64,000 nucleotides of DNA from Candidatus Eiseniibacteriota bacterium (GCA_024276995.1 JAJRWB010000014.1:71712-135711); one strand, 5' to 3'; positions 5,738-43,202 are shown, numbered from the stretch's first letter. Notes: generated from the letters alone by a model not told the origin. Translations and numbers: made by a program.

Positions 5738-5766
5738 CTTGACACTCCCTGGGCCGCTTGGTAGAG
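5738..5766 (+). promoter_or_regulatory. sigma-70-type promoter TTGACA-N17-TAGAGT upstream of the TonB-dependent receptor gene
   Basis: Exact TTGACA at 5738-5743, a 17-nt spacer, then TAGAGT at 5761-5766. The SD sequence AAAGGAG and an ATG at 5857 lie downstream. Confidence 0.5.
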
Positions 5767-5856
5767 TGCGCGGAGTGTGCGGCGCAAAAACGGGATCGAT
5801 CCGGGCGGGCGGCCGCACCGTTCGAGAAATGGTTCTTGCCGAAAGGAGCGGAGAGT

Positions 5857-8571
5857 ATGTTCGGAAAGAAAGGTTCTTTCTGGCGTTGCCCCGTACTCCT
5901 CGTATTGCTCGTCCTAGCGGCCGCACCCCCATCGCAGGTTCTAGGGCAAAACCAGGATACCGGGATTCTGTCCGGGACCGTCCGTGACAAGGATACGGGC
6001 AAGCCGATCCCCTGGGCCGATGTGCTCGTCGAGGGAACGGGCAAGGGCGCCGTCGTCCAGGCGAACGGCACGTTCACACTGCCCGGTATCCCGGCCGGGA
6101 TGCACAACATCATCGTCAGCCGGATCGGCTACGAATCGAAGACGACGGAAAACTACAACGTCGTCGCCGGCACCGTGAATCCCCTGAACGTTCTTCTCGC
6201 CCCGCTCGCCACGAGGATGAAAGCGGTCAGCGTGGAAGGGGAAGACGACGAAGTGGACATCGAGTCGTCCACGTCGAGCAACAAGATCACCAAGGAAGAA
6301 TTCAAGGTGAGGGCGATCAACAACGTGACCGACGCCCTCGCGAAACAGCCGGGCGTGATCGTCGATCCGGGAGGCGGTGTCCATGTCCGGGGAAGCCGGA
6401 CCGACGAAACGAAGTACTACGTCGACGGCATGCCGGTGACGAACGCCTTCCAGGCGGGTACGTCGCTCAACGTCTCGTTCGCCGCGCTCTCCGAGATCGA
6501 GCTGCTCAGCGGCGGGTTCGACGCCGAGTATGGAAACGCCTCTTCGGGTATCGTGAATATCACCACCGCGGAGGGAGGACGCACTTTTTCCGGGCTGGTT
6601 CGGTTCTTCACCGACGATTTCGGGGCGCCCGACAAGACGTACTACAACTCGGACGATCTCGCCCTCGCTCTCGGCGGTCCGGTGCTCTCGAAGGATTTGC
6701 GTTTCTACCTGTCGGGCGAAGGGATCTGGAGCAACACGTACCTGCCGGTGAACCGGGAATACAACAAGCACAAGATTCTCGGCATCACCTTCCGCGACAG
6801 GAATGATAATTCGTACCAGGGCCAGGGGAAACTGACCTATTTCTTCACACCCGAGAAAAAACTTTCAACGGAAATGCTTTATACGCGGCGGATCCGTGCG
6901 CCGTACAGGCACACTCTCAGTCGCACCGGTTGGTGGTCCGCCGAGAACCGGCACTGGTGGTTCGAGCCTCTCGATTCGACCTATGTGTTCTACTCCGGCC
7001 CGGAGCATGACACCCGGATCGCGCGGATCGACCAGCAGGCGAGCCTCAGCTGGACGCATACTCTCTCGCCGGAAACGTATTACACCGCCAAGCTGGCGCG
7101 GTTCAGCAGCAACAACCTGGAGAGGGTCGGGCAGAAGAATCCCCGAGACTATCTCCCCTTCTTCGGCACCGAAAACCAGATCGATCCATTGAACCGGTAT
7201 TTCGCCGTGGAGGGAGACTATCCCCTGTACGACGAATACCAGTCCTCCACGGTGACATTGAAAACGGACCTCACGAGCCAGTTCCACCGGAAACACAGGG
7301 GAAAGATGGGGCTGCAGCTCGACTACTACGACATGGCGAATTTCAACGCCCAGTTCCCCGATTCGAACAACATCGAGGGACGGTTTCCCGACAGGTACCA
7401 CGTATACTCGTGGGGGGGTGCCCTGTACGCGCAGGACCGCTTCACATACGAAGGAATGGTGGTGAACGGCGGGCTGCGCTGGGATTTCTATGATCCCGGT
7501 CTCAAGGCGGTCCGGCTCGACAACGAATCGCGTGCGTCCCGCTTCCTTCCGCCGAATGATATCTCCCTCGGCGCGCGGCTCAACTCGCAGATCAGTCCTC
7601 GCCTCGGCATGGCGTACCCGATCACCGACCGGGATGTTCTTCATTTTCATTACGGCCGTTTCTACCAGCTGCCGAGTCTCTCCGACATGTACACCTCCAT
7701 CGGCGTGACGAACCAGACCCCCGGAAGCGTCACGGGGAACGTCAGTCTCGATCCGGTGAAGACGATCAGTTACGAACTCGGCGTCGATCACCAGCTCACG
7801 GGGCTGCTCAATCTCGACATGACGGTTTTCTTCAAGGATATCTTCGGATGGATCGATACGCAGGAAGATCCGAACGGAACGCTGGCGAGCACCGGGGCGG
7901 ACCCGGCGGTCACTTTCGTGAACCAGGCGTACGGCACGGTGAAGGGTCTTGAGTTCAAGCTACGCCGGAAGTTCCGAAACAAGTTCGGCGGCAGCCTGGT
8001 CTACACCCTTTCACGCGCCACCGGGACGCACTCCGATCCGAACACGCAGCTCCTCATCGGTCTCGGCCAGCTGAACCGGAAGCCTCTCGGTGAGAGTCCC
8101 CTCGATTGGGACCGCACCCATACGCTGGTGGGGAACCTGATCCTCTCCGACCCCGGGGTGTGGGAGATCTCCACCGACTTCACATACCAAAGCGGCGCAC
8201 CGTTCACGCCGCAGGAGTTCAACCAGCGGCAGGTCCTCGCGGAGGATGTGAACAGCGGACGGCTGCCGGAAGAATCGTGGCTCGACATCCGGGCGAACAA
8301 GCTCTATTCGATGTACGGGCAGGAATTCAGGCTCTATGTGGAAGGGACGAACCTCCTCGATCGCCGGAATATCGCCACCTTCGATCCGAGCGATTTTCCG
8401 AGCAATACGGGACTCCACGCCGAGTACTATACCGAGGAGGGGCAACTCGGCGGCGCGTACAATCTGCACGAAGTGAATGCGTCGAGCGAGGACCGCTACA
8501 TTCCCCTGAACGACCCAAGGGTATTCGACCCGGGTCGCGCCTTGAAGATGGGTATCATGCTCGACTGGTAG
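5857..8571 (+). CDS. TonB-dependent outer-membrane receptor, SusC/RagA-like, with an N-terminal carboxypeptidase-regulatory-like domain
   Basis: ORF 5758..8571. ATG at 5857 with SD GGAG. Signal peptide MFGKKGSFWRCPVLLVLLVLAAAPPSQVLG. A CarbopepD_reg-like stretch (GILSGTVRD..TGKPIPWADVLVEGTGKGAVVQANGTFTL), plug-domain motifs, and a C-terminal beta-barrel region. Confidence 0.8.
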   Translation: MFGKKGSFWRCPVLLVLLVLAAAPPSQVLGQNQDTGILSGTVRDKDTGKPIPWADVLVEGTGKGAVVQANGTFTLPGIPAGMHNIIVSRIGYESKTTENYNVVAGTVNPLNVLLAPLATRMKAVSVEGEDDEVDIESSTSSNKITKEEFKVRAINNVTDALAKQPGVIVDPGGGVHVRGSRTDETKYYVDGMPVTNAFQAGTSLNVSFAALSEIELLSGGFDAEYGNASSGIVNITTAEGGRTFSGLVRFFTDDFGAPDKTYYNSDDLALALGGPVLSKDLRFYLSGEGIWSNTYLPVNREYNKHKILGITFRDRNDNSYQGQGKLTYFFTPEKKLSTEMLYTRRIRAPYRHTLSRTGWWSAENRHWWFEPLDSTYVFYSGPEHDTRIARIDQQASLSWTHTLSPETYYTAKLARFSSNNLERVGQKNPRDYLPFFGTENQIDPLNRYFAVEGDYPLYDEYQSSTVTLKTDLTSQFHRKHRGKMGLQLDYYDMANFNAQFPDSNNIEGRFPDRYHVYSWGGALYAQDRFTYEGMVVNGGLRWDFYDPGLKAVRLDNESRASRFLPPNDISLGARLNSQISPRLGMAYPITDRDVLHFHYGRFYQLPSLSDMYTSIGVTNQTPGSVTGNVSLDPVKTISYELGVDHQLTGLLNLDMTVFFKDIFGWIDTQEDPNGTLASTGADPAVTFVNQAYGTVKGLEFKLRRKFRNKFGGSLVYTLSRATGTHSDPNTQLLIGLGQLNRKPLGESPLDWDRTHTLVGNLILSDPGVWEISTDFTYQSGAPFTPQEFNQRQVLAEDVNSGRLPEESWLDIRANKLYSMYGQEFRLYVEGTNLLDRRNIATFDPSDFPSNTGLHAEYYTEEGQLGGAYNLHEVNASSEDRYIPLNDPRVFDPGRALKMGIMLDW

Positions 8572-8610
8572 GACCACCGGGTGGTCCGCACCGCTGGGGA
8601 GGCTCGAAAA

Positions 8611-10806
8611 ATGTCTGGCCGTTATGGGAATCGATCAGTAACCGGAGGCGTGGGACGGTTCGCCGGCGGGGCGCCTTGTGCCCTTCTCGTCGTTGCGGTG
8701 CTCCTCGCCGTCATCGCCGGCGTCGGCTCGGCGCGGATGACCGATGAGCAACTCGGCGCGTCGGCACAGATTCCGGAAAACGTCTCTCCCGTGCTCCGGT
8801 TCCTGACGAATTTCCACAACGTGGGGAAACTGATTCTCCATATTTCGAACCAAGGGATCTTCGGCACCTTCGGGACGGCCGATTTCAACGTCGCCCCGTC
8901 CGCGCAATGGCCGCCGGGAGTGCCGCATGAATACCTCTACGCCGCCGGCATCTGGCTGGGGGGCGTGATCGAAACCGAAGGGGGAGATGTCGACACCCTT
9001 GTCTCGGCGGCGGTCTACCAGCGGGAGTTCTGGCCCGACTTTTTCGATCCCCTTGCCACGATCTACGAAACCTGGGAGGGTCGCCCCGGGCGGCAGCGCT
9101 ATTTCGATGACGACGGCGACGGCTCGGTCGACGAAGACGAGATCGACGGCATCAACAACGATCCGTGGAACGACACGCGGATCGACGAGGATCACGCCGC
9201 CATCAGCCAGCAGATGTTCCGCTGCACGTACTATGACACCACCGATTTCAACGATCGGATTTCCGACCCGAGATCGTTCCACTATCCCATCGGGTTGAAG
9301 GTGACCCAGGAGAGCTACCAGTGGGTGGGGCCGAACTGGGACGATTTCGTCGGAATCGACTTCACCATCGAGAATATTTCCCAGAGGAGCATTCGCGCCG
9401 CGTACGTCGGCTTCATGGTCGATTCGGATGTGGGAAACACGAGGCTCACCGATGCGATCTTCAACGATGATCTTTCCAATTTCATCAGCCAGGATACGAC
9501 TTTGATCGTGCCGGGGGCGGAACCGGAGGATCTCAGTTTGAATATCGCCTACATGCGCGATGCCGAGGGAGGAGACGACGGCTCGGACGCCGACGGTCTT
9601 TTCGGTGTCATGTTTCTCGGCCACACCGTCGACTCGAGCGGGATCAACGCGCCGGCGAAGGTGGAGATCCACGCCTACCGGTCATGGTCGAGCGGCGAGG
9701 AGGATCCGGAGGACGACAGGGAGCGGTACCGCTATCTCAGGGGGAACCGGAACGAGCCCCCGGGAAGTCCGATCTGGCTCCAGCATATCGACCCCCCCGA
9801 ATTGAGGCCGGCCGATTACCGGATGCTCGTTTCCGCAGGGCCGTTTCGGGAAATCCTTCCGGGCGACGTGTTGAAGTTCCAGTCGGCCTTCGTCATCCTC
9901 GACAGCAAGGGCCTGAACCGTGACGACGAGAATGTCGTGCGGACCCAAATGCTCGGAAACGCGATCGCCGCGCAACGAATCTTCAACCGCGACTGGACGG
10001 CCGCATCGGCGCCTCCGCCCCCGAACCAACGACTCATACCCGGCGATCACAGGATCACCCTCGAGTGGGACGACTTCTCCGAGCTCACCCCCGACCCCCT
10101 TTCGAGAAAGCTCGATTTCCAGGGGTATGAGATCTGGAAGTCGGTCGGATGGAGGCGCGAAACCGCCGACCCGGGTGACGACACGTGGTTCCTCATCGCC
10201 GATATCGACAAGGAGGAACTGTCCAACTTCGACACCGGCGCCCAGGGGGTGGGAAAATATCGTTACATCGATTCGAAGGATGTGAAAAACGGTTTCCCGT
10301 ACTGGTACGCCGTAGTCGCCTACGATCAGGGCGACCCGGAAGCGGGGATCGCGCCGGAGCACGGCAAATTTTCCCAGGCGAAGCAGCTCGTTTACGCCCG
10401 TTTCAGCCCGACCCGGTCGCTCGACGACGCCGTGGACGTGTACGACGTGGACGAGGCGACGGGCGAAGTGTCGGCGAAGGAGATCCGGACCGTGCAGAAC
10501 GTCCGCGTCGTTCCGAATCCGTACAAGGAGAGGGCGGCCTGGGACGAGAGCGACTCGGCGATGAACCCGACGGGGAGAAAGATCTACTTCGTCAATCTCC
10601 CGGAAAGGGCGACGATTACGATTTACACCCTTGCCGGTGATCTGGTACAGACGATTGAGCACAACTACACCACGAGTCCGGAAATCGACAGAACGTTCTG
10701 GAACCTGGTGTCGAGGAACAATCAGGAAGTGGTGAGCGGAATCTACATCTACCATATCCAGTCGGAGGTGGGAGAGAAGGTGGGACGCTTCGCTATTCTC
10801 CGTTGA
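8611..10806 (+). CDS. secreted surface protein of unknown function with Asp-rich Ca-binding-like repeats, an FN3-like region and a T9SS C-terminal sorting domain (Por_Secre_tail-like)
   Basis: ORF 8581..10806. ATG at 8611 with SD GGGGAGG. Signal peptide. DDDGDGSVDEDEIDGINNDPWND repeats. C-terminus VVPNPY..ATITIYTLAGDLVQTI..VVSGIYIYHIQSE..GRFAILR, typical of T9SS CTDs. Confidence 0.7.
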   Translation: MSGRYGNRSVTGGVGRFAGGAPCALLVVAVLLAVIAGVGSARMTDEQLGASAQIPENVSPVLRFLTNFHNVGKLILHISNQGIFGTFGTADFNVAPSAQWPPGVPHEYLYAAGIWLGGVIETEGGDVDTLVSAAVYQREFWPDFFDPLATIYETWEGRPGRQRYFDDDGDGSVDEDEIDGINNDPWNDTRIDEDHAAISQQMFRCTYYDTTDFNDRISDPRSFHYPIGLKVTQESYQWVGPNWDDFVGIDFTIENISQRSIRAAYVGFMVDSDVGNTRLTDAIFNDDLSNFISQDTTLIVPGAEPEDLSLNIAYMRDAEGGDDGSDADGLFGVMFLGHTVDSSGINAPAKVEIHAYRSWSSGEEDPEDDRERYRYLRGNRNEPPGSPIWLQHIDPPELRPADYRMLVSAGPFREILPGDVLKFQSAFVILDSKGLNRDDENVVRTQMLGNAIAAQRIFNRDWTAASAPPPPNQRLIPGDHRITLEWDDFSELTPDPLSRKLDFQGYEIWKSVGWRRETADPGDDTWFLIADIDKEELSNFDTGAQGVGKYRYIDSKDVKNGFPYWYAVVAYDQGDPEAGIAPEHGKFSQAKQLVYARFSPTRSLDDAVDVYDVDEATGEVSAKEIRTVQNVRVVPNPYKERAAWDESDSAMNPTGRKIYFVNLPERATITIYTLAGDLVQTIEHNYTTSPEIDRTFWNLVSRNNQEVVSGIYIYHIQSEVGEKVGRFAILR

Positions 10807-10876
10807 AAAGGACGGCGCCTGTAACGCCCATGTTCGCGGGGGCGATCGGAAAGTGAATGGAAGGGAGGAGAGAACG

Positions 10877-11854
10877 TTGAAGTCGATGAGGATCTTCCTG
10901 GCCCTCGCCGGGGTCGTCCTGATGCAGGGACCGGCGCAAGGGGGCGAGGTCTTCGCCAAGGTGGGAACCATCGGCGCCCAGTTTCTGAAACTAGGCGTGG
11001 GTGGTCGCGGCGTGGCGATGGGCGATGCGTTCGTCGCCGTGGCGGACGACGCGTCGGCGCTTTACTGGAACCCCGCGGGGATCGCCCAGCTGCAGGGGAA
11101 CAGCCATGTTTTTCTTTCCCATTCCACCTGGCCGGCGGAAATCGGCCATGAATTTGCCGGTTACGTCTTCACATACGGCTCGATTCCCGGTGTGCTCGGC
11201 GTGAGCGTCAACGTGCTGCAGATGGACCCGATGATCCGTACCACCGAGTACCACCCCGATGGGATCAACCTGGCGGGGTCGGAGGAACTCGAGCAGTTCG
11301 ACGCCGGCGATCTCGCCATCGGTTTCAGCTACGCCCAGTTTCTCACCGACAAATTCTCCTTCGGAGGAACGGTGAAGTGGATCCACCAGGGTCTGGAGGA
11401 GGAATTCGCCGAGGGGTTGAACTTCGACTTCGGAACGCTCTACCATACCGGTTTCCGGACGGTCACGGTGGGGATGACGATACAGAATATCGGTCCCGAA
11501 ATGAGCTTCATCGAGCAGCGTTTCTCCCCTCCGACGGCGTTCAAGCTCGGACTTTCGATGGATGCGTTCCGTGCGAACCGCCAGAACCTCCTCGTATCGA
11601 CCGAGTTTAACCACCTGAGTGATAACCAGGAGCGGGCGAACCTCGGCCTGGAGTACGAGTACACCCCTCTCGACAGAGTCTCCCTCGCCCTGCGCGGCGG
11701 TCTGACGCCGAAGCGGGATACGCAGCAGTACGCCTTCGGCTTCGGCGTCCGGTTCCCCACCAGCTCGAACGCCAGCGCGAAAGTGAACTACTCCTACAGC
11801 CAGCTCGATTTACTCGGAGGCGCGCACCAGATCAGTGTCAACCTGATCTACTGA
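10877..11854 (+). CDS. PorV/LptO-like outer-membrane beta-barrel protein (UPF0164 family)
   Basis: ORF 10853..11854. Signal peptide MRIFLALAGVVLMQG. The family motif ..GARGVAMGDAFVAVADDASALYWNPAG... Start taken as TTG 10877 or ATG 10886. Confidence 0.7.
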   Translation: MKSMRIFLALAGVVLMQGPAQGGEVFAKVGTIGAQFLKLGVGGRGVAMGDAFVAVADDASALYWNPAGIAQLQGNSHVFLSHSTWPAEIGHEFAGYVFTYGSIPGVLGVSVNVLQMDPMIRTTEYHPDGINLAGSEELEQFDAGDLAIGFSYAQFLTDKFSFGGTVKWIHQGLEEEFAEGLNFDFGTLYHTGFRTVTVGMTIQNIGPEMSFIEQRFSPPTAFKLGLSMDAFRANRQNLLVSTEFNHLSDNQERANLGLEYEYTPLDRVSLALRGGLTPKRDTQQYAFGFGVRFPTSSNASAKVNYSYSQLDLLGGAHQISVNLIY

Positions 11855-11894
11855 GCCGCGCGCCCGGTGACCGGCGGCCAAGGAGCGAACCGCC

Positions 11895-13394
11895 GTGAAA
11901 CGGTTTCTCACCCTTCTTCTCGTGATCGGGACGACCTTCGCATTGCCGCCGGTGATCCGCGCCGTGCGGGCGGATGGTGAACCGGCTTCCTCGTCGGGCG
12001 ATATCCGCTTCGTGTTCGACACGTCGTCGTTCCGAGGTTCCAACGCCGCCTCGCGGGAAGAGCTCTTCCTCCTCATCCCGAACCGGGAGCTGAAGTTCGT
12101 CAACCGGGGAAACGGACGCCTCGAGGCCGACATCGACGTTCGCGTACTGTTCAGGCGCTGGCCCACCGGGGAGGTTCTTCTCTACAAGACGATCAATGCG
12201 GTTCTCGAGACGCCGTCCAGCGAAGCGGCGAGGGGGATTCACGATCTGGAGGTGCTTCAGAAGCAGTTCTTCATCGAACCGGGACCGTTCGAGGTGGAGG
12301 TCACCGTTGCGGACCGGAACACCAGGGGCTTCGGTTTCTTCCACCTCTTCGGAAGGAGTCCGACGGAGGGAACCGCCTCGGGCCGTTTCGTGGCGAGGCG
12401 GTTCGCCCCGGAGGGACTTCAGCTTTCCGATCTCCTTTTCGCCCGGGGAACGGGAAAATCGATATCCGACGTGGTACCGAACCCGAACCGCCTCTACGGC
12501 GCGATGCTCCCGTCGCTTTCCTATTATTACGAAGCGTACGATCCTCCCGCCGATGGTGGAGATTCACCGGGAGAACTCTTTGTGCGCCACGAGATCGTGG
12601 GAGGCGACGGCACAGTTTATCTGAGGGAGGACCGGATACTCTCGCCCCTGGCCGAGGGGAAGGGATATCGGAACCGGATGAACCACGATCTGCGCTCACT
12701 GCCCGGCGGCGCGTACACCCTCCGGATCACGGCGAGGCCGCAGACACGCTCCGATTCGGTGATCGTCGAGGCGCCGTTTCACGTGGTGTGGCGCAAATCG
12801 GACATCTCCGCGCTGGAGGACGGTTCCGCCGCGGGCGACGAACTCTTCACCGAGATGAACCTCGACGACGAGATCGCCTCGCTCCGATACATTCTCGTTC
12901 CCGATGATCTTTCTCACCTCAAGGGCCTCCCCAGGGAGAAGCAGAAGGAGTGGATCGAGGCGTACTGGAAGGAGAAGGACCCGACGCCCGGAACGGAGGC
13001 GAACGAGCTGCGGATGGAGCATTACAGGAGGATTCAGCACGCGAATCAAAGATTCACCGCCATGCGCCAGAAGGGCATGGATACCGACAGGGGCCAGATC
13101 TACATCCGCTACGGCGAACCGGACGAGATCAGCAGCGGGTATTCGGCGCAATCGTTTATCACCCCCCTCGGGGGGCGCTCGCACCTTTCCGATCAGGCGG
13201 ACGTCACGGGATCACTCGGCGGCTTCAACGTCGAGGAAAAGGCGTACGAAATCTGGACGTATAGCGAACGAGGGCGTTTTCTCGGCGAGCGAAGAAATCG
13301 CGGAGCGGGGCTCGAGCTACGGTTCGTCTTCGTCGACGTGGAGGGTTGGGGCGATTACACCCTCATCCAAAGCACCGACCCGACGGAGTTCTGA
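11895..13394 (+). CDS. GWxTD-domain-like secreted protein
   Basis: GTG start with SD AAGGAG. Signal peptide MKRFLTLLLVIGTTFALPPVIRA. The C-terminal ..VDVEGWGDYTLIQSTDPTEF resembles the GWxTD family motif. This assignment is from memory. Confidence 0.65.
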   Translation: MKRFLTLLLVIGTTFALPPVIRAVRADGEPASSSGDIRFVFDTSSFRGSNAASREELFLLIPNRELKFVNRGNGRLEADIDVRVLFRRWPTGEVLLYKTINAVLETPSSEAARGIHDLEVLQKQFFIEPGPFEVEVTVADRNTRGFGFFHLFGRSPTEGTASGRFVARRFAPEGLQLSDLLFARGTGKSISDVVPNPNRLYGAMLPSLSYYYEAYDPPADGGDSPGELFVRHEIVGGDGTVYLREDRILSPLAEGKGYRNRMNHDLRSLPGGAYTLRITARPQTRSDSVIVEAPFHVVWRKSDISALEDGSAAGDELFTEMNLDDEIASLRYILVPDDLSHLKGLPREKQKEWIEAYWKEKDPTPGTEANELRMEHYRRIQHANQRFTAMRQKGMDTDRGQIYIRYGEPDEISSGYSAQSFITPLGGRSHLSDQADVTGSLGGFNVEEKAYEIWTYSERGRFLGERRNRGAGLELRFVFVDVEGWGDYTLIQSTDPTEF

Positions 13395-13408
13395 GGGGGA
13401 CAAAACGG

Positions 13409-13437
13409 TTGACAATACGGGGCGACCTTCGTAGAGT
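13409..13437 (+). promoter_or_regulatory. sigma-70-type promoter P1 (TTGACA-N17-TAGAGT) of the exbB-exbD-exbD-tonB operon
   Basis: Exact TTGACA at 13409-13414, a 17-nt spacer, then TAGAGT at 13432-13437, in a relatively AT-rich 174-nt intergenic region. Confidence 0.5.
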
Positions 13438-13506
13438 TTAGCTTTCTCAACAGGTTATGAGGTTCATCTTATCACGCTTTTTCGCGGGGAAATCAAATTC
13501 GACGAC

Positions 13507-13535
13507 TTGACGTGCCGTGGCGTCGCGATGATAGT
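13507..13535 (+). promoter_or_regulatory. possible second promoter P2 (TTGACG-N17-GATAGT) overlapping the GTCGCGAT direct repeats
   Basis: TTGACG at 13507-13512, a 17-nt spacer, then GATAGT at 13530-13535, 34 nt before the exbB ATG. The -10 is weaker than P1. Confidence 0.3.
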
Positions 13536-13568
13536 CGCGATAGCGGCCGGCACCGGAGGGGAGAGTTC

Positions 13569-14444
13569 ATGGCGTTTCAGGGCATCACACTGAGGAGCGT
13601 TTTCCGCCGGGGGGCGATCGTCGCCTTCCTTCTTCTCGCTTCATTCGCGTTCGCCGCGGCGCAGGATGCGCAGAGCGCCGCGGACATGCCGATGGACAGC
13701 GGCGCAGTGGCCGATACCATGGCCGGCATGACCGATACCTTGGCGACGGAGACCACCGATTCGCTCGCGGCCGGAATGACCATGGATACCGCCGAGCCGG
13801 AAGGGTTCATGGACCGGATCGCCAACAGCGGTCTCGTCACGCTCTTCCACAACGGCGGCACCTTCATGTGGCCGCTCCTCATCCTCTCGGTGATCGGCCT
13901 CGCCGTTTTCTTCGAGCGCTTCTGGACCTTCTCGAAGGCGAGGACGAATGTTCGTAAGTTCATGGCCCGTATCTCCAACGCGTTGACGAAGGAGGGGATC
14001 GAGGGCGCCATGCGGGTCTGCGAAGAGACGAGGGGACCGATATCCGCGGTGCTGCATGCCGGGTTGATGAAGGCGGGACGCGGTCCGGACGCGATCGAGA
14101 AGGCGATCCAGTCCTCGGGGACGATCGAGATGTCGTTTCTCGAGCGCGGGCTGGTGGTGATCTCCTCGGTGGCCACCATCGGGCCTCTTCTCGGCTTCCT
14201 CGGAACGGTGTCCGGGATGATCAACGCCTTCGAGGCGATCGCCGCCGCGGACCAAGTGAATGCGAAAGTGGTGGCGGGCGGTATCTCCGAAGCGCTGATC
14301 ACCACCGCCGCCGGGCTGATGATCGCGATTCCGGCGCAGGCGGCCTACAACTACTTCGTCGCTCAGATCGATAAGTTCATCATTGAAATGGAAGAGGCGT
14401 CCACCGAGATGATCGACACGCTGATCTCCATGGAGAGCGAGTAG
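13569..14444 (+). CDS. exbB: MotA/TolQ/ExbB proton-channel protein
   Basis: ORF 13512..14444. ATG at 13569 with SD GGAGGGGAG. A cleavable N-terminal region and three TM segments. The conserved C-terminal ..GLMIAIPAQAAYNYF.. motif. Confidence 0.85.
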   Translation: MAFQGITLRSVFRRGAIVAFLLLASFAFAAAQDAQSAADMPMDSGAVADTMAGMTDTLATETTDSLAAGMTMDTAEPEGFMDRIANSGLVTLFHNGGTFMWPLLILSVIGLAVFFERFWTFSKARTNVRKFMARISNALTKEGIEGAMRVCEETRGPISAVLHAGLMKAGRGPDAIEKAIQSSGTIEMSFLERGLVVISSVATIGPLLGFLGTVSGMINAFEAIAAADQVNAKVVAGGISEALITTAAGLMIAIPAQAAYNYFVAQIDKFIIEMEEASTEMIDTLISMESE

Positions 14445-14452
14445 ATCGCGGG

Positions 14453-14857
14453 ATGATTCTGAAGAAGAAAACACGCTCGGAGCCGGAGATCCCCAGTTCG
14501 TCGATGTCGGACGTCGCATTTCTCCTGCTCATTTTCTTCCTGGTGACCACCATTTTCAACCTCGAGCGGGGTCTCGACCTGACGCTGCCGAACTCCCAGT
14601 CGTCGCCGAAGCGGATCAACCCGAAGAATATCTGCGAAATCAAGATCGCCGCCACGGGGAAGATCACCATCGATGACAAGGAAGTGGGACTTCCGGAGAT
14701 CGAAACGATCGTCCGGAAAAGGGCGCTGGAGAACGAGAAGCTCATGTGCGTCATCGAAACCGATCCGAAGGCGTACTACGGTTTCATGGTCGATGTGCTC
14801 GATGAGCTGAAGACGGCGGAGGCCCGGAAGATCACGCTGCGGACGGGGAAGGGGTAG
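14453..14857 (+). CDS. exbD: biopolymer transport protein ExbD/TolR
   Basis: 134-aa ORF with ..SSMSDVAFLLLIFFLVTT.., the typical ExbD N-terminal TM segment. Confidence 0.85.
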   Translation: MILKKKTRSEPEIPSSSMSDVAFLLLIFFLVTTIFNLERGLDLTLPNSQSSPKRINPKNICEIKIAATGKITIDDKEVGLPEIETIVRKRALENEKLMCVIETDPKAYYGFMVDVLDELKTAEARKITLRTGKG

Positions 14858-14859
14858 CG

Positions 14860-15282
14860 GTGAGCCACAAGCGATTCAAGAGGAAGGCGGGGGCGCCGGC
14901 GGTGGTTCCCACATCATCGATGGCGGACATCGCGTTCCTCCTGCTGATCTTCTTCATGGTGAGCACGATTTTCAAGCTCGAGGACGGCCTCCCGGTTAAG
15001 CTGCCGAAGTCGGCGGACGCCGAACAGATCGCCCGGGAGAGAGTGGCGTACATCTGGATCGACAAGAGGGGCGAGCTGTCGATCAACGATAATATGGTCG
15101 ATCTCTCCGCGGTGGGAGGGATCGTACTCGGGAAACTCGCCCAGAATCCCGCGTTGATCATCGCTTTCAAGGCGGACGCGCAGGTGCCGTACGACCGAAT
15201 GGCCGACCTGATGGAGGAGCTGAAGAAGGTGAACGCCACGAAGGTCTCCTTTTCGGCCGACTTCGAGAAGAAAAGGCAGTAG
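14860..15282 (+). CDS. exbD: biopolymer transport protein ExbD/TolR (second copy)
   Basis: 140-aa paralogue with ..SSMADIAFLLLIFFMVSTIF... GTG start after SD GGGGAAGGGG. Confidence 0.85.
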   Translation: MSHKRFKRKAGAPAVVPTSSMADIAFLLLIFFMVSTIFKLEDGLPVKLPKSADAEQIARERVAYIWIDKRGELSINDNMVDLSAVGGIVLGKLAQNPALIIAFKADAQVPYDRMADLMEELKKVNATKVSFSADFEKKRQ

Positions 15283-15284
15283 CG

Positions 15285-15932
15285 ATGCAACAGTTCGCCA
15301 ACATCGAACTGAAACTCAATTTCCGGAAGTACTTCGATGTGGCGCTCATCCTTGCGGTGTTCGCCCATATCGCGGGGTTCTTCCTTTCTCCACGCTACAA
15401 GCCGGTGCCGTACGTTCCCCCACCGGACGACGAGATCGTGGTGATCGAGGAGCTCGAGGAGGTGGAGGTGCCCCTGCCCCCCGTGGAGGTCGCCCGTCCC
15501 CGGATTCCGATTGCCGCGGAATTCGCCGAGGTCGAGATCTCCGAGGAAGCGGATCCGGAGGAGACGATCGAGGACACCGATGTGGATATCGAGAACCCTT
15601 CCGCCGCGAGGCTGAACTATGTCGATCCCGGCGAAGGATCGGAGTTCACTTCGTTCAGCGATCCTCCGATGGAGAAGAGAATCTACAAGCCGGTCTATCC
15701 CGCCATCGCGAAGCAGGCCGGCATCGAAGGAACGGTGGTGGCGAAGGTGTATATCGATGAAAAGGGAAACGTGATCCGGGTCGAGATTCTCCAGTCTCCT
15801 TCGGAGATCTTCATTCAACCGGTGAAGGATGCTCTCTTCCGCAGCCAGTTCTATCCGGCGAAGCAAAGAGATATCCCGGTGAAGAGCACCGTGACCGTTC
15901 CCTTCGATTTCTTCCTGAAAGGGTCGGGCTGA
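15285..15932 (+). CDS. tonB: energy transducer TonB
   Basis: N-terminal TM segment, a Pro/Glu-rich spacer (VPYVPPPDDEIVVIEELEEVEVPLPPVEV) and a C-terminal TonB_C domain (..GIEGTVVAKVYIDEKGNV..VTVPFDF). Confidence 0.8.
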   Translation: MQQFANIELKLNFRKYFDVALILAVFAHIAGFFLSPRYKPVPYVPPPDDEIVVIEELEEVEVPLPPVEVARPRIPIAAEFAEVEISEEADPEETIEDTDVDIENPSAARLNYVDPGEGSEFTSFSDPPMEKRIYKPVYPAIAKQAGIEGTVVAKVYIDEKGNVIRVEILQSPSEIFIQPVKDALFRSQFYPAKQRDIPVKSTVTVPFDFFLKGSG

Positions 15933-16037: not shown

Positions 16038-16688
16038 GTGAGCGATATCGTCGATGTGTTGTTGCGGCCCTCGGAGTTTTTCCGATCTCTCCGGGAACGC
16101 CCCCGCTGGGTCATCGCCATGGCGGTGCTGTTGATCGTTACCGCCGCCGGGATGGTTCTTATTCTGAACGAAACGATCGACTTCGCCCGCCAGGCGGGGT
16201 TGAGCCAGGCGGCGAACGACGATTCCCGCCAGGCGATCGAACGGTTCTTCTCGCACCCCTTCTTCAAGGTATTCATCGTCGTCGCCCCCGGTGGGGCGCA
16301 GCTCTTTTCGGTTCTCCTCTACGGTGCTTTCGCCCTGCTGATCCTCGCCCTGAGCGGCGGGGGCCTCGAGGCGCGGCCGTACGGCCGGATCGTCACCGCC
16401 GGGCTCTGGTCGAAAATGGTCGAGATCCCCCACATGGTTCTTCTCGTCCCCCTCACGAAGATGAAGGGGTCGCCCGAAATCTATTTCGGGCCGGCGGCGT
16501 TCTTCACCGGTGACGTCACCGACCGGTGGTTCCGTTTCGTCGCCGGGTTCGACCTCTTTCAGATCTGGTCGCTCCTCCTGTTCGCCCTCGGCGTGCGGAT
16601 CTGCCTTCACGTTTCCACGCGCCGCGCGGCGGTGGCGGTGATTCTCCCCTGGCTGGTAAGGCAGGCGATCCGGCTCGCCTTGGGGTAG
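16038..16688 (+). CDS. Yip1-domain-like integral membrane protein
   Basis: 216-aa ORF with a GTG start. The N-terminus MSDIVDVLLRPSEFFRSL.. and 4-5 TM helices resemble the Yip1/DUF1282 family. Weak assignment. Confidence 0.45.
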   Translation: MSDIVDVLLRPSEFFRSLRERPRWVIAMAVLLIVTAAGMVLILNETIDFARQAGLSQAANDDSRQAIERFFSHPFFKVFIVVAPGGAQLFSVLLYGAFALLILALSGGGLEARPYGRIVTAGLWSKMVEIPHMVLLVPLTKMKGSPEIYFGPAAFFTGDVTDRWFRFVAGFDLFQIWSLLLFALGVRICLHVSTRRAAVAVILPWLVRQAIRLALG

Positions 16689-16780
16689 AGGAAACACGCG
16701 GGGCATCCCCGGCGTATGGACAGGAGTGAAACGATCGCGGTATGTGGATTCCCCGATGGACCGGTACGGAGGTGTGAGGA

Positions 16781-18118
16781 ATGAATCGATTGAAGCGGAC
16801 AACCCTCGGCGCGGCGTGTCTCCTGCTGGCCGGCACGATCGGCGCGAGCGCCGTTGCGTCGGAGAATGTCCTCCCGGAAGTGAAGCGCCTGGCGGCGGGC
16901 AAACCGGTGACCATCGATGAGTGCGTCAAGATCGCGCTCGCCCTCAACCCATCGCTTCTCGCGTCGGAGCGCGGCGCTTCGGCGAGCGACCGGGCGATCC
17001 TCGAGGCGTACGCGAACTACCTCCCCTCGGTGACCGGGAGGTTCGACGGTTCGCGGACGAGCGGTCAGATCACGGGTCCGTTCGGCAGTCTGAAGAGCGT
17101 GAAATTCGATCGTTTCAGCACGGGGGTCAGCATACGCCAGAACCTGTTCACCTATTCGGGCTACCGATCGATCACGGCGGCGAAGAAGAGTCGCGACGCG
17201 AAATTCGCCGGCGTGGAAGTCAAACGCCAGGAGCTGATTCTCCAGGTGAAGCAGGGATTCCACAACGTGATGAAGACGGAGGATCTTCTCGACGTGGCGA
17301 ACGAGAATCTCGTGGTGGGCGAAGAGCAGTTGAAGCTCGCCGAGAAGCGAAAGGAGGTGGGTGCCGGGGTGATCGCCTACGTCCTGAAGGCGAAGGCGCA
17401 GGTCGAGTCGAACCGGCTCGATGTGATCACCGCCGAGAAGAACGTCGCCACCGCGAAGGCGGAGCTTCTCTCCGCCCTCGGCCTCGACGTTTCCCTTCCT
17501 CTCGTGCTCAGCGAGCCTCCTCCCGTCGAGCCGTCGATCCCCCCCTTCGAGGAGAGCCTCCGCCTGGCGTACGAGAACCGGCCCGACCTTCTCGAGGGCG
17601 ATCTTAACTACCGGGCCGCCCGAGACGGTATCGGCCGGGCCCGCGGGGAGTGGATTCCGTCGCTTTCGGGCAACTTCTCCTACGGATGGCAGGATACGGA
17701 ACTCACCGAGGATTTCCTGGCCGACATCAACCGAACCTGGACCGCCTCGGTCAGCCTGAACATGCCTTTGTTCAACGCCGGCACGCTCTCGCGCATCCGC
17801 CAGAACCGAGCCCTAGCCGAGGAAGCGCACTGGAACCTCGAAAGCACGCGCCAAGCGATCGCCTTCGACGTGCAAGAGGCGATCCTCTCACTCGAGGAAT
17901 CGGCGAAGAAGATGGAAGTGGCCGAAAGAAACGTCTCCGCCGCCCAAGAGGATCTACGCGTTTCCCAGGGGAAGTACAAGCACGGCCTCGTCCCGATTCT
18001 CGATCTCATCGAATCGCAGGCGGCCCTCGCGAAGGCGCGGGCGGAAAAAGTCGAGGCTTTCCACACCTACCTCTCGTCGAGGGCGTCCTACGAGAAGGCG
18101 ATCGGGATCCCGGAGTAG
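16781..18118 (+). CDS. TolC-family outer-membrane efflux protein
   Basis: 445-aa ORF with SD GGAGG. Signal peptide. The coiled-coil repeat pattern typical of OEP/TolC proteins (..[29 protein letters not shown]..). Confidence 0.8.
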
Positions 18119-18120
18119 GG

Positions 18121-18825
18121 GTGAGCCGGGAAGCGATCATCGAGGCGAAAGGCCTCTCGAAGACATACCTCCTCGGCAGGCTCGAAGTGCCCGCCCTCAG
18201 GGGCGTCTCGTTCCGGGTACGCCCGAACGAGTATATCGCCGTGATGGGACCTTCCGGTTCGGGAAAGTCGACCCTCATGAACCTGATCGGCTGCCTCGAC
18301 ACGCCGACCGCGGGGGAATACCGTCTCGACGGTGAACTCGTCTCCGCCATGGACGACGATCAACTCGCCTCGATCCGGAACGGGAAGATCGGCTTCGTCT
18401 TCCAGACGTTCAATCTTCTCCCAAGGGCGGACGCCTTTCAGAACGTCGAGCTTCCGCTGATCTACGCAGGGTTGTCGAAAGCGAAGAGAAGGCGTCGCGT
18501 GGAAGAGGCGATCGAAGCGGTGGGTCTCACCGAAAGGAGCCACCATCGGCCGAGCGAACTCTCCGGCGGACAACGCCAGAGGATCGCCATCGCGAGGGCG
18601 CTCGTGAACCGTCCGGCGCTCCTTCTCGCCGACGAACCGACGGGCAACCTGGACAGCGTCACAGGCGAGGAGATCATGGGGCTCTTCGGGAAGCTCCACG
18701 ACGCGGGGAACACGATCATCCTCGTCACCCACGAGGAATACATCGCCAGGAAGTCGAACCGGCTGATCCGCCTTCGCGACGGACGGATCGAAGAAGACAG
18801 GCCGGTCGGGAGAGTGGAAGGATGA
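18121..18825 (+). CDS. ABC transporter ATP-binding protein, MacB/LolD type (ATPase only)
   Basis: ORF 17650..18825. GTG at 18121 immediately after the tolC stop. Walker [11 protein letters not shown]-loop, signature LSGGQRQR, Walker [13 protein letters not shown] and the H-loop. Confidence 0.85.
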
Positions 18826-19910
18826 CGGTGTCCGACGCCGTCGTCCGCGCGGCCGGGCTTCGCCGCTCCATCGGGCGGATCGCCGCACGGTTCTACCGGC
18901 GCTTCACGAGGGTCGACCTGACGGTTCGTTGCCGGGGGGCGAAGGTGATCGTTTCGGGGGTGTGCACCTCCCGTGGCGCGGCCGGTGAAGTTCGGGCCCT
19001 CACGGAGACGATGAGAGGTGTGGAGGAGCGAATCGAGGGCCCGTGGGGAGGTAGGGAGGGAAAGTTCCTCATCGCCGCCGCGCCGGTCGTTCCCCTTCGG
19101 GACGAGCCGCGCCACGGCGGGTCGATGGTGACCCAGGCGGTGATGGGCGAGACCCTCGAAGAGATCGTTCGCGTGAAAGGGGAGGGGTGGGCTCTCGTAC
19201 GGGGATGGGACGGTTACCTCGGGTATGTGGCTTTGCGCGAAACGACGCCGCTAAGAGGCGAACCGTCGCGGCGGACGGAGCCGGCGGTCCGCGTTACGAC
19301 GCCGATCGCCGCCCTTCGCGAGGCGCCCCGCCGGGACGCGTCGGTGGTCACGCGACTTCCCTTCGATTCGCTTCTGACGTTGGTCCGCCGGACCGATAGC
19401 GATTTCGAACTCGAGTTGCCGTCCGGCGAAAGAGCCTGGCTCGACGGGGCGGACGGTGAGATCGAGAAAGAGCGGCCCCGCCATTACGATCCCGTTGATC
19501 TCATCGCCCGGGCGAGAGAGATGCTCGGCGCACCCTATCTCTGGGGAGGAACCTCTCCTTTCGGATTCGACTGTTCCGGCCTTGTTCAGCGGCTCTTTCT
19601 CCATCACAAGGTTCTCCTCCCCCGCGACGCCGACCTCCAGGCCCGTGCGGTAGGCGATCTTTCTAGAAACCGTACGACCCTTCCGGGGGATCTCCTCTTC
19701 TTCGGTGAGGACCGCGTCGATCACGTGGCGATCTCCCTCGGGGGGGACGATTTTCTCCACGCCTCCGGCTGGGTCCGGATCGAATCGCTTGACGACCGCT
19801 CGCCCCTCTTCCGTGCCGACCTGAAGTCGCGCTTCACCGGATCGGGAAGAGTGAGGAACTTCGGTGCCTCCTCCCACGGAAGCGACCTGTTCGAGGGAGG
19901 GGGGGGGTGA
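18822..19910 (+). CDS. NlpC/P60-family (C40) peptidoglycan endopeptidase with an N-terminal SH3-like region
   Basis: ATGA overlap with the upstream gene. The C-terminal catalytic region ..[32 protein letters not shown].. is the Cys-His C40 signature. Confidence 0.75.
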
Positions 19911-21027: not shown

Positions 21028-21252
21028 GCGCCTTTCTCCTTGGGGAACCACCGGAACGTGTTTCGGGCTACACCCTTATGATCGGTACGGCGGGCCGGTT
21101 TATTTACTCCTTTTCGGTTGACCCGCGGATCGACCCTTGCCTATTGTAGATCGGTAAACCGATCCCCACGGGAACCGTTCCCGGCGCGGGGATGTGAAAG
21201 TTGTTGGAAACAGAAGAGTTCGCCGCGCCGTTGCGGCGAAAGCGGTTTTGAA

Positions 21253-22335
21253 ATGACAGGTTGCATGTTTCGCTTCGTCCCGGGAGTAGCGCTCGCCCTC
21301 TCGCTCATCGTTGCGCCCGCTTCGGTGTGTCGGGCGGACGACTCTCCCGCGGGCAGGTATCTGACCAACGTGGAGCTGATGCATCTCGCCGTGCGGGAAG
21401 CGGTGGCGGATGCTCTCCAAGGGATGCCCGCCGTGGAAGGGGGACGAATCGCGCTTCGTCCGGTGGAAACGTCCGAGATCGACTGGCTCGTCGAGACCGA
21501 GCTGCTCGGGAGGCTCGCGTCGACCGCTTCCGGCGTCCGGCTCTACGAGGGTCGTCGCTCGAATCCGGGCAAAGCGAAACGAAACCGAAAAAGCGAGGAA
21601 ACGCCGGTGATGCCCGCGACGGACAAGCCGCCCGTCTTCAAGAGCGGACCTCCGGTAGGCGTACCCGAACAAGCATGCGAGAAAGGATTGGGAGGTGTCG
21701 TCACGGCCCGGCTCATTGTCAACGAGTCGGGCGGCGTGGCGAATACGGTCATCGAGGAGAGCGCCGGTTCCCCCTTCGACGAGGCGGTGGAGACCGGCGT
21801 GGCCTCCTGGCTATTCGATCCGGCCGGGAAAGATGGGGAGCCGGTGATCGGGACGGTCTACTGCCGTTTCGAGTTTCCGGTGGTCCCGAAGGAAGAGTGC
21901 GGTGAGAAAGCGATCCCCGGGGAATTCCTCGACGGATTCGAACCGAAGGGGGAGGAGACGGCGAAAGCCGCTCCACCGCCGGCCGCGGACGACGTTCCGA
22001 CACTGGCGTACAGGGTTTCGGAACTCGAGTTCCTTTATCCCGGGGCGGGGAGACGATTCGTGATCGGACCGAAGAGAGTCGAGAGGTTCGGGCGAACCCG
22101 GATCGATCTTCGCCTCGAGAAGGGGGGGGACGTGGTCTGGGCCTCCTCGGCGGAACACTACGTTTCCGACCGGGTGCCCGCCGGGGCTCTTCACGAACTC
22201 GAGGGGAGTGGTTACGAGTTCGCCCGTCCGCCGATGCCCGAATCGGGTATCGGAAAGGTCGTGGAACCTCTCGCCGTCGCCGGCGTGCTCGGCGGTATGA
22301 TCGTTCTCTTCTACACGAACCAAGCCGGCGATTGA
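21253..22335 (+). CDS. hypothetical envelope protein with a TonB-C-like domain and a C-terminal membrane anchor
   Basis: ORF 21118..22335. ATG at 21253 or 21268, then the signal peptide FVPGVALALSLIVAPASVCRA. A central stretch ..GGVVTARLIVNESGGVANTVIEESAGSPFDEAVETGVASWLFDPAGKDGEPV.. resembles TonB_C. Hydrophobic C-terminus. Confidence 0.45.
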   Translation: MTGCMFRFVPGVALALSLIVAPASVCRADDSPAGRYLTNVELMHLAVREAVADALQGMPAVEGGRIALRPVETSEIDWLVETELLGRLASTASGVRLYEGRRSNPGKAKRNRKSEETPVMPATDKPPVFKSGPPVGVPEQACEKGLGGVVTARLIVNESGGVANTVIEESAGSPFDEAVETGVASWLFDPAGKDGEPVIGTVYCRFEFPVVPKEECGEKAIPGEFLDGFEPKGEETAKAAPPPAADDVPTLAYRVSELEFLYPGAGRRFVIGPKRVERFGRTRIDLRLEKGGDVVWASSAEHYVSDRVPAGALHELEGSGYEFARPPMPESGIGKVVEPLAVAGVLGGMIVLFYTNQAGD

Positions 22336-40482: not shown

Positions 40483-41565
40483 TTACTTCCTCGTGAACCG
40501 GAAGAAGATCACCGACCCGAGTAGAAGGAAGATCGCGTTGCCGAGCCACGCGGAGACGACGGGCGGCACGACATCGTTGTAGCCGAGCGACTGGCCGACG
40601 CGGATGGCGAGGTAGTAGACGAAGCAGATCACCAGGGCGAGAGAAAAACCGATGGCGTTCCCTCCCCGTCTCAGGAGCGCCCCGAGAGGAGCGCCGAGAA
40701 GGACGATGATCAGGTTGTTGAAAGGGTACGAAAGCTTCATGTGGAGATCGACTTCTTGCTTTAGGACATCGCCGCCGCTCAGCTTCGCCTTCTCCACGAA
40801 CCGGCGAAGTTCGCCGTAGCTCATCTCCTTCGGTCCCTTGCGGATCTCCGACAGTTCCACCGGGCTTTCCGTCAATTCGGGAAATGCCCGCGAATCGAAC
40901 TCTTCCTCCTCGAGAAGGCGATCGCTGTCGAACACCCTCCGGTAACCGTTGTGAAATGTCCAGATCCCGTTTTCCCAAACCGCTTCCTTCGCATCGATCC
41001 GTTCGACGACGGTAAAGTCGGACAGCCGGGAAATAACGACGTCCCGCATCGTTCCCCTGCCGGTGTCGAGCCGGCCGATGGAGAATATCCGCTCGCCTTC
41101 GCCTATGAAGTTCACGTTCGTATGAATCTTCGAGGAGCGCGCCCTTTCCGGCTTGATCTTCATCCTTTCGATGGTTTTCACGCGAACGGCGCTTTCGGGC
41201 GCCACCGTCTCCCCGCCCAAGAGCGCGAGAAAACTCACCGCGAGACCCGCGGCGAGCACCGGGAGAAGCGATCTGCGGATGCTGATACCGGCGCTCGACG
41301 TGGCGATGAACTCGTTCGCCCGGGCGTGGGAACCGAGGGCGAAAAGGCACGCGAGGAGCATGCATACCGGTAGGGTGAGAAGAACGATTTCCGGAAGACG
41401 GTAAAGATAGTAGAGGAGCACCGTGAGAAACGGAACGCCGTGGTCGATGAAGTTGTCGATCTTCTCGAACAGGTCGATCACGATGAAAATCGACAGGAAC
41501 GACACGATCGAAAGGGCGAGTGTGCGAACGTAGCGACCGAGGATATACGTGTCGAGGATCCGCAT
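40483..41565 (-). CDS. lptG: LPS export ABC transporter permease (LptF/LptG, YjgP/YjgQ family)
   Basis: The minus-strand ORF 40483..41886 translates to MRILDTYILGRYVRTLALSIVSFLSIFIVIDLF.., the typical family N-terminus. The start sits at the position where the upstream paralogue ends. Six TM segments plus a periplasmic beta-jellyroll. Confidence 0.8.
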   Translation of the reverse strand: MRILDTYILGRYVRTLALSIVSFLSIFIVIDLFEKIDNFIDHGVPFLTVLLYYLYRLPEIVLLTLPVCMLLACLFALGSHARANEFIATSSAGISIRRSLLPVLAAGLAVSFLALLGGETVAPESAVRVKTIERMKIKPERARSSKIHTNVNFIGEGERIFSIGRLDTGRGTMRDVVISRLSDFTVVERIDAKEAVWENGIWTFHNGYRRVFDSDRLLEEEEFDSRAFPELTESPVELSEIRKGPKEMSYGELRRFVEKAKLSGGDVLKQEVDLHMKLSYPFNNLIIVLLGAPLGALLRRGGNAIGFSLALVICFVYYLAIRVGQSLGYNDVVPPVVSAWLGNAIFLLLGSVIFFRFTRK

Positions 41566-42953: not shown

Positions 42954-43135
42954 TCCAGCTCCCTTCCAGCATCCCACCTTATAAGATGAACCCCGCCCAC
43001 TCAATCGCCTTTCCATCGATTCGTCTCCGGTGGAGGACAAGCCGTCCCGCTCCGGGTACGTTTGGATCGACGTCGCGCCGGAAACGGGAGAACCGCGGGG
43101 CCGACGGTGTGGTGTGGTTCTTGCATCTCATTGAT

Positions 43136-43152: not shown

Positions 43153-43162
43153 CCTGTCCCTC

Positions 43163-43194: not shown

Positions 43195-43202
43195 GCGGCA
43201 CC

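Follow-up and report, generated by a model that had tools for sequence, protein, structure and literature searches.

The window analysed here is a stretch of 64,000 nucleotides from a Candidatus Eiseniibacteriota bacterium (GCA_024276995.1, JAJRWB010000014.1:71712-135711), and its positions 5738..15932 hold eight co-directional genes, all on the + strand. Each gives a significant family match; the second encodes a secreted protein without a Pfam hit that we call X. The eight genes, which sit where the original prediction had put them, encode a TonB-dependent transporter (TBDT), X, a barrel of the PorV/PorQ family, a GWxTD-domain protein and an ExbB, ExbD, ExbD and TonB set. The first three are the main subject of this report. 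From gene order and family membership, there is roughly an even chance that they form an outer-membrane module in which X, exported to the surface through type IX secretion (T9SS), serves the TBDT together with the PorV/PorQ-family barrel.

The TBDT, X, barrel and GWxTD genes are separated by intergenic gaps of only 40–47 bp. Upstream of the TBDT gene lies a promoter-like site (TTGACA-17-TAGAGT; 5739..5767, +), a consensus match only, with 10 of 12 matching positions and a TG extension. A second promoter-like site with identical hexamers (13409..13437, +) occupies the 174-bp gap between the GWxTD stop at 13394 and the exbB ATG at 13569. Ten promoter-like sites were observed in the region, compared with 3.1 ± 1.6 in shuffled sequences. 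The two sites had been thought to bracket the cluster; the second is in fact inside it and splits the region into two likely operons, one probably comprising TBDT-X-barrel-GWxTD and the other exbB-exbD-exbD-tonB.

The TBDT gene (5857..8571, +) was read from the sequence as starting at an ATG at 5857 that follows a GGAG, the listed open reading frame (ORF) beginning at 5758. Its product of 904 aa has a signal peptide, a CarboxypepD_reg N-terminal domain (PF13620, 58.9 bits), a plug (PF07715, 51.9 bits, cut-off 23.9) and a 22-strand-type barrel (PF25183, 67.5 bits, cut-off 30), which together make it a TBDT in the generic sense of a plug with a large β-barrel. Among solved structures, the nearest chains align with the plug alone. 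Against the SusC/RagA model TIGR04056 the protein scores 43.6 bits, the cut-off being 368.25, and matches only positions 3–206 of 981. As judged by this model the transporter is outside the SusC/RagA family, and its earlier description as SusC-like holds for the N-terminal domain and plug but not for the family. A SusD-like partner had been reported missing, and a scan of 18 proteins from the cluster and its flanks revealed none; similarly, no SusD-type family was present among the genes called for 13 related loci. A scan with NCBIfam-type models gave no T9SS-linked TBDT match for this transporter.

X (8611..10806, +) is a protein of 731 aa, as originally stated, with a signal peptide. Searches of Pfam, NCBIfam and PDB sequences gave no Pfam match and recovered only the C-terminal domain (CTD) described below. 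The AlphaFold2 model built from 64 homologues (predicted local distance difference test, pLDDT, 78; predicted template modelling score, pTM, 0.73) consists of a ~400-residue β-sandwich with a low-confidence Asp-rich loop (~60–460), an FN3-like domain (~468–600) and a C-terminal β-sandwich, the T9SS type-A-like CTD (~630–731). When a profile was run against 1.84 billion cluster representatives (50% identity), 1,603 of them matched at E ≤ 1e-30 and 6,416 with the looser limit of E ≤ 1e-10, and 43 of 44 diverse X relatives had no Pfam hit, the single hit being a PA14 domain; X therefore belongs to a large superfamily without a name. When one genome per species was scanned, 228 places were found to encode X relatives, and 80 loci were retrieved, whose neighbouring genes were labelled by phmmer with the window proteins as queries; related loci are given L numbers below. 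Some related loci encode a paralogous protein, X′ (~625 aa), which scores 62–98 bits to X and has the same CTD. Residues ~160–195 of X form an Asp-rich stretch (DDDGDGxxDEDxxDGxxND...IDED) reminiscent of thrombospondin-type-3 Ca2+-binding repeats, a stretch that does not vary within the X family and that X′ lacks. Among the folds that had been suggested for X, an FN3-like domain and this Ca-repeat-like stretch were seen, whereas a SusD fold was not.

The N-domain residues that are invariant across X and X′ are W115, D271, D273, G275, D286, D287, D317, D365, Y373, D402, R404 and G410. Those invariant in the superfamily (D271, D273, D286, D287, D317, D365, Y373, D402 and R404) are mostly acidic, with one Arg and one Tyr, and may mark either a site for Ca2+ or an active site. 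An active site would fit an alternative that retains the same architecture, namely that X is a surface enzyme (for example a peptidase, or a lyase or hydrolase that depends on Ca2+ and acts on polysaccharides) which cuts a polymer and feeds the fragments to the TBDT. In the model, the N-domain appears to resemble the β-supersandwich of glycoside hydrolase (GH) families GH116, GH94 and GH65 and of amine oxidase, and peptide-related genes are close by (OppD/F-type ATPases and NlpC/P60; DUF1611 and MR_MLE upstream of X′ in L084 and L087). However, the Foldseek matches of X in the PDB, which comprise FN3 arrays, PorU (6za2), PorZ (5m11), the N-terminal supersandwich of GH116/GH94/GH65 and amine oxidase, are all weak (template modelling, TM, score ≤ 0.27), and the matched GH parts are non-catalytic N-terminal domains with TM ≤ 0.25. 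Pfam, NCBIfam and PDB searches produced no enzyme match for X, nor for 43 of its 44 diverse relatives; an enzyme domain in X, which the original prediction had named as damaging to its case, was not recognisable. The acidic cluster may simply bind Ca2+, and the flanking genes vary between loci. We consider the enzyme explanation unlikely, though it deserves to be kept in view.

The evidence that X is a T9SS substrate is found at its C-terminus. The T9SS type A tail model TIGR04183 scores 21.5 bits on the window protein, the curated cut-off being 23, and a paralogue of X in L041 passes it with 23.7 bits. The C-terminal region of X also matches that of PorU (E 1e-5). The type A model recognises 16 of 29 X and X′ proteins (E ≤ 0.01), and the C-termini of the PorZ and PorU models recognise 20 and 12 of them, respectively, whereas the type B model TIGR04131 finds a single protein at E 0.0074, so that the CTD does not qualify as type B. 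The motifs PNPY, G676, W697, SGxYxY and GKF are invariant in the family. Taken at family level, these profile matches indicate that X proteins carry a T9SS CTD; the CTD predicted for the window protein is just under the cut-off when that protein is considered singly. The window also encodes the T9SS translocon SprA/Sov as a 2133-aa ORF (43062..49463, +; TIGR04189 531 bits, cut-off 200), which would be needed for the proposed export of X. The ORFs on either side of it (41520..42989 and 49491..50414) have no NCBIfam match, and the scanned ORFs of the window yielded no further recognisable T9SS component.

The likeness to PorU and PorZ raises another explanation, in which X and the barrel correspond, in this lineage, to an attachment pair such as PorZ-PorQ or PorU-PorV, the TBDT is a secretion accessory comparable to PG0534 of P. 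gingivalis and the cluster serves the secretion or attachment of other cargo as part of the T9SS machinery. A more frequent match of the X-family CTDs to the PorZ and PorU models than to the generic type A model has been claimed in its favour (the counts are those given above), PorU and PorZ structures appear in the Foldseek list of X, and one group of related loci (locus type B, below) has a PorV-leaning barrel beside a PorQ-leaning one. Adjacency of porU and porV is normal in Bacteroidota. In addition, PG0534, which is annotated as a TonB-dependent receptor, is needed for T9SS function (PMC5445135). Yet neither PorU (NF033707) nor PorZ (NF052228) matches X over its full length; the similarity is limited to the C-terminal ~90 residues and scores 23.4 bits vs 420 and ~28–29 bits vs 260, respectively. 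X has no conserved Cys/His pair of the C25 sortase and its model no propeller, and no T9SS-linked TBDT model matched the TBDT. Furthermore, several diverged triads exist per genome, each with its own TBDT and barrel, a multiplicity that would suit modules specific to a substrate better than core machinery. A machinery role for the cluster thus appears distinctly improbable.

The third gene (~10877..11854, +) encodes an outer-membrane barrel of the PorV/PorQ family, 14-strand-type, which is the proposed cognate anchor of X. Its start was placed at a TTG at 10877, 6 nt past a GGAGGAG-type site, with an ATG at 10886 as an alternative. The original assignment as PorV-like was borne out by the family model NF033709, which scores 187.8 bits (cut-off 90) over positions 3–323 of 326, and the best PDB sequence match is PorV of F. 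johnsoniae (6h3i_F, E 5e-4). The barrel is below the cut-offs of the equivalog models for PorV (NF033710, 68.4/250), PorQ (NF033711, 71.8/220) and PorV2 (NF052325, 83.2/325). It also gives a weak Toluene_X/FadL match of 23.6 bits, and PorV itself belongs to the FadL superfamily (PMC12578637), so the barrel might instead be a FadL-type channel for hydrophobic molecules that works with the TBDT independently of the CTD of X. We give this idea very little credence, as the FadL model remains below its cut-off of 29.7 while the PorV/PorQ family is passed clearly, and the barrel always follows the CTD protein. A role as a BamP/BamG-type subunit of the β-barrel assembly machinery (BAM) was considered and dropped, the papers giving no link to PorV-family membership. 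It is kept as an analogy, for in the Bacteroidota BAM complex a surface protein is held by a FadL-like barrel (PMC12578637).

An argument for joint function comes from the comparison of loci. The X relatives that carry a name come from Candidatus Eisenbacteria metagenome-assembled genomes, and the host organism is an Eisenbacteria-like member of the Fibrobacteres-Chlorobi-Bacteroidetes (FCB) group. Flanking sequence is available on either side of X in 56 species-level loci; the TBDT gene directly upstream and the PorV-like gene directly downstream are both present in 45 and both missing in 11, and no locus has one only. Five loci that seemed to have a single partner proved on inspection to be ORF-boundary artefacts or to contain a frameshifted X. 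These neighbourhoods show a conserved core of TBDT, X and PorV/PorQ barrel that is kept or absent as a whole. Two locus types dominate. Type A loci (~28) have the order TBDT-X-barrel-GWxTD of the window, and type B loci (~20) have TBDT-X-barrel-barrel, with one PorV-leaning and one PorQ-leaning barrel, followed by two opposite-strand genes and then, ~4 kb away, by the Ton operon. The opposite-strand genes (in L031, 14550..18006, −) encode proteins of 660 and 480 aa without a Pfam or NCBIfam match and have the same position in other type B loci. In L038 (3755..9763) and L055 (3893..9917), two tandem TBDT paralogues precede X, a duplicated-transporter variant.

Similar arrangements are found well beyond these closest relatives. 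In L085 and L090, a TBDT-X-barrel-GWxTD series with a longer X (926/936 aa) lies beside glycolysis genes. TBDT-X′-barrel triads occur in L084, L087, L088 and L089, with unrelated flanks in each, and in L084 the X and X′ modules share one contig, ~13 kb apart. The TBDTs of the X′ modules score 259–335 bits against the window TBDT, compared with 74 bits for a TBDT from the same phylum that is unrelated, and the X′-module barrels score 104–138 bits against the window barrel. All three components of the X′ modules are therefore homologous to their window counterparts, and the triad has been duplicated as a block. Four diverse representatives of the superfamily likewise have the barrel downstream in every case and the TBDT upstream wherever upstream sequence exists. 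In a single-protein metagenome scan of the P0283 subfamily, five of eight loci fit the triad and two are long orphans; in one locus, where the contig ends inside X, there is a faint TBDT-like match (38 bits) ~1.7 kb upstream. The possibility that the gene order is not conserved in relatives, raised against the module when it was first proposed, can be set aside, as the order TBDT-X-PorV-like is kept across dozens of species-level genomes and in paralogous modules.

Could the genes simply be adjacent without acting together? The region would then be a long conserved housekeeping stretch (gcv-opp-...-exb-tonB-OEP) with X as an ordinary T9SS cargo, for example an adhesin. The long-range order of GcvP, OppDF, Yip1, OEP, ABC and NlpC/P60 genes is indeed kept in L002, L004-L006 and the window, and orphan X paralogues exist. 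Nevertheless, in L085, L087-L091 and L094-L096 the triad is found again between wholly different flanking genes, which rules out simple phylum-wide conservation of gene order, and the block duplication, together with the joint presence or absence of TBDT and barrel in 56/56 loci, also speaks against chance adjacency. We regard this explanation as highly improbable.

The orphan X genes are lineage-specific second copies in Eisenbacteria and, in addition, make up most of a distant Krumholzibacteriia/Chitinivibrionia clade. Their neighbourhoods share no common theme; among the genes seen there are those for FG-GAP/ASPIC proteins, TPR proteins, GH113 and a histidine kinase accompanied by a σ54 regulator. 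The copies in L024 and L041 adjoin FG-GAP/ASPIC-UnbV proteins, and L041 also has a TPR protein and GH113 nearby as well as, 8 kb upstream, a 394-aa protein with a faint PorV-family match at its N-terminus (34.5 bits). In L075 (12519..16469) the X homologue is followed by a TPR protein, a histidine kinase and a σ54-dependent response regulator, and in L073 (8494..9966) by a histidine kinase, with no TBDT in either locus; the downstream genes of L077, whose families were not scanned, have sizes like those in L075. L097 (2919..7121) and L100 (211..4440) contain X-like ORFs of ~1,400 aa without TBDT or barrel neighbours, which match only residues ~15–600 of a P0283-type query and may lack the usual C-terminal part.

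The remaining genes of the cluster are less tightly tied to the triad. The GWxTD-domain protein (11895..13394, +; 499 aa with a signal peptide) matches TIGR04514 at 97.2 bits (cut-off 28) and PF20094 at 48.8 (cut-off 26.9), and its AlphaFold2 model (pLDDT 83) shows two Ig-like sandwiches and a helical/β GWxTD domain; the fold matches of the model are only weak and uninformative. Its gene follows the PorV-like gene in the ~28 type A loci and in L085, L090 and L092. It is absent from type B, X′ and P0283-type triads, and in ~20 loci a second PorV-like gene replaces it. GWxTD genes also occur beside OEP/ABC/MacB genes, and a distant one stands alone in L086. On this distribution, the GWxTD protein is a lineage-specific accessory and not part of the triad core. 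A literature search on GWxTD proteins found no papers.

The second operon encodes an ExbB/TolQ-family proton channel (13569..14444, +; PF01618 113 bits; ATG read from the sequence), two ExbD/TolR-family proteins (14453..14857, +, PF02472 85.9 bits; 14860..15282, +, PF02472 78.6 bits) and a TonB-family protein (15285..15932, +; PF03544 59.1 bits, TIGR01352 43.7 bits). This is a complete ExbB-ExbD-TonB energiser by family, and the equivalog models for exbB, tolQ, ExbD and TonB all score below their cut-offs. The Ton operon adjoins ~20 of ~29 type A loci, is separated from the triad in type B loci and is absent beside X′ and P0283-type triads. Another TonB_C protein of 405 aa is encoded at 21118..22335 (+), 5 kb downstream of the cluster TonB. 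The promoter-like site of the Ton operon, the absence of this operon from many triads and the second TonB_C gene make a dedicated Ton set unlikely, and exbB-exbD-exbD-tonB is probably a general Ton energiser that is a frequent neighbour. The original prediction of a self-contained eight-gene module with a dedicated Ton set was hence too wide. The GWxTD protein and a complete Ton set are present, but the former is no fixed part of the module, the latter is missing beside about one third of the closest-type loci and all X′ and P0283 triads, and only the triad is conserved.

How the triad may work can be outlined by analogy with known T9SS proteins. X would cross the inner membrane by Sec, guided by its signal peptide, and its type-A-like CTD would take it through the SprA translocon. 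It would then be neither released nor lipid-linked; instead, the uncleaved CTD would stay docked on the cognate PorV-like barrel encoded by the adjacent gene, a model that follows PorZ on PorQ and PorU on PorV in Porphyromonas. Retention of a CTD on a cognate barrel has been described for these two pairs (PMC10202324) and proposed for type B cargo with PorP/SprF (PMC12618676). Held at the cell surface beside the TBDT, the β-sandwich and FN3 region of X would capture and possibly trim a substrate, which the TBDT would import with TonB energy. In this lineage, the operon would supply the GWxTD protein as a further component, either secreted or periplasmic. The tethering of X to the barrel, its physical association with the TBDT and the role in uptake are what we infer from gene order and domain content. 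The idea of a T9SS-anchored capture protein working with a TBDT remains, on the same grounds, the best available reading, while the eight-gene unit and the SusC membership that came with it do not stand.

Several points weigh against this reading. The evidence is, throughout, gene context in uncultured genomes, and the loci were found by searching for X, so that the statistics are conditional on its presence. The CTD of the window protein is slightly short of the curated type A cut-off, and no ligand-binding or catalytic fold was identified in X, since what Foldseek reached were generic parts of β-sandwich, FN3 or CTD-like type. Some X paralogues have neither a TBDT nor a barrel beside them (the 11/56 loci noted above, most of the distant Krumholzibacteriia/Chitinivibrionia-type clade, L097 and L100), and the X family is therefore not obligately tied to a TBDT. 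The barrel could also be the general T9SS shuttle of the organism. Finally, neither a riboswitch or leader RNA (in the window, upstream of the TBDT at a relaxed threshold, or in eight related loci) nor a regulator pointing to a substrate was found. What hints there are near the triads concern peptides: the window has Opp ATPases and NlpC/P60. Other triads have unrelated neighbours. In one clade of Eisenbacteria, the X′ triads (L084, 8001..17242; L087, 1155..10884) lie directly downstream of genes for a second GWxTD protein (GWxTD2), an NlpC/P60(SH3_16) protein, DUF1611 and an MR_MLE-type epimerase, a gene set that recalls murein-peptide catabolism and gives a weak hint of (muro)peptide uptake.

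Both halves of the proposed arrangement have precedents, a TBDT with a surface partner on the one hand and T9SS cargo with a cognate barrel on the other, but as separate systems and almost only from Bacteroidota. The SusC/SusD (RagA/RagB) systems are alike in having the gene of a CarboxypepD_reg TBDT directly beside that of a surface partner, in a module that is multiplied and diversified per genome. They differ in that the window TBDT fails the SusC/RagA model, the partner is a β-sandwich/FN3 protein with a T9SS CTD and not a SusD-fold lipoprotein, the triad always has a third gene for a PorV-family barrel, and no glycan-utilisation genes are linked. Other TBDTs have surface partners that are not SusD, namely BtuB-BtuG, HmuR-HmuY and TbpA-TbpB, in which the partners are lipoproteins and the ligand is handed to the TBDT. 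The same logic of capture and hand-over would apply here, with CTD-to-barrel anchoring via the T9SS proposed in place of a lipoprotein. Neither a cofactor riboswitch nor an iron or haem signature was found here.

On the side of the T9SS, the PorZ-PorQ and PorU-PorV pairs of P. gingivalis share with the triad a CTD protein, type-A-like in the case of X, that is proposed to keep its CTD and stay on a PorV-family barrel (PMC10202324). The CTDs of the X family are matched by the C-terminal parts of the PorZ and PorU models, and the barrel is about the size of PorQ (~320 aa). Unlike PorZ and PorU, X lacks a C25 peptidase domain and propellers, and the barrels fail the PorV, PorQ and PorV2 equivalogs; moreover, the X-barrel pair is tied to a TBDT, and a genome has several diverged copies of it. 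In Flavobacterium, type B CTD cargo with PorP/SprF is similar in that the cargo gene is clustered with that of its own FadL-like barrel, the proposed anchor (PMC12618676; also PMC9143113, as cited in PMC10202324). In contrast, the CTD of X is type-A-like, the barrel is PorV/PorQ and not PorP/SprF, and the Flavobacterium pairs are adhesin systems without a TBDT. PG0534 of P. gingivalis is also a TBDT-type barrel functionally tied to the T9SS (PMC5445135); compared by description, it differs as a single-copy, machinery-associated protein outside repeated cargo-barrel triads. Full-text searches (T9SS or PorV with TBDT; Eisenbacteria and related phyla), in a literature coverage that is incomplete, did not find the present arrangement described.

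If the operon does join the two kinds of system, it would be a second evolutionary solution for placing a capture protein over a TBDT without the export of a surface lipoprotein. It would also suggest a physiological role for many PorV/PorQ-family paralogues beyond Bacteroidota, and offer a first functional handle on a very large Pfam-less superfamily and on the uncultured Eisenbacteria. The triad is a concrete three-protein complex for prediction, expression and imaging. More tentatively, and with the balance of our judgement somewhat against it, FCB candidate phyla (Eisenbacteria and their kin) may share a general and so far undescribed class of tripartite outer-membrane uptake machines, in which a T9SS protein docked on a PorV-family barrel of its own takes the place of the SusD-type lipoprotein as the capture partner of the TBDT, and the X superfamily, with its ~1,600 clusters at E ≤ 1e-30, is the diversified ligand-binding component.

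The remaining genes of the window (G+C 63%) are mostly housekeeping. Upstream of the cluster are glycine-cleavage P-protein genes and two Opp-type ATPases; downstream are Yip1, an OEP/TolC-like protein, an ABC ATPase, NlpC/P60 and the second TonB_C protein. The order Yip1, OEP/TolC-like, ABC ATPase and NlpC/P60-SH3 beside the Ton operon (16038..19910, +) is kept in L001, L084 and L087. In relatives, this block also contains genes for a MacB-type permease and for another GWxTD protein, which is shorter (GWxTD2, ~415 aa), and GWxTD proteins thus accompany two different outer-membrane-related operons. Four strong σ70-like sites, at 3670, 5739, 13409 and 20125 (+), each precede a gene block and have near-identical hexamers (TTGACA/TGGACA/TTGACG ... 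TAGAGT/TATAGT); from these matches, classical −35/−10 promoters seem to be used by this FCB-group organism.

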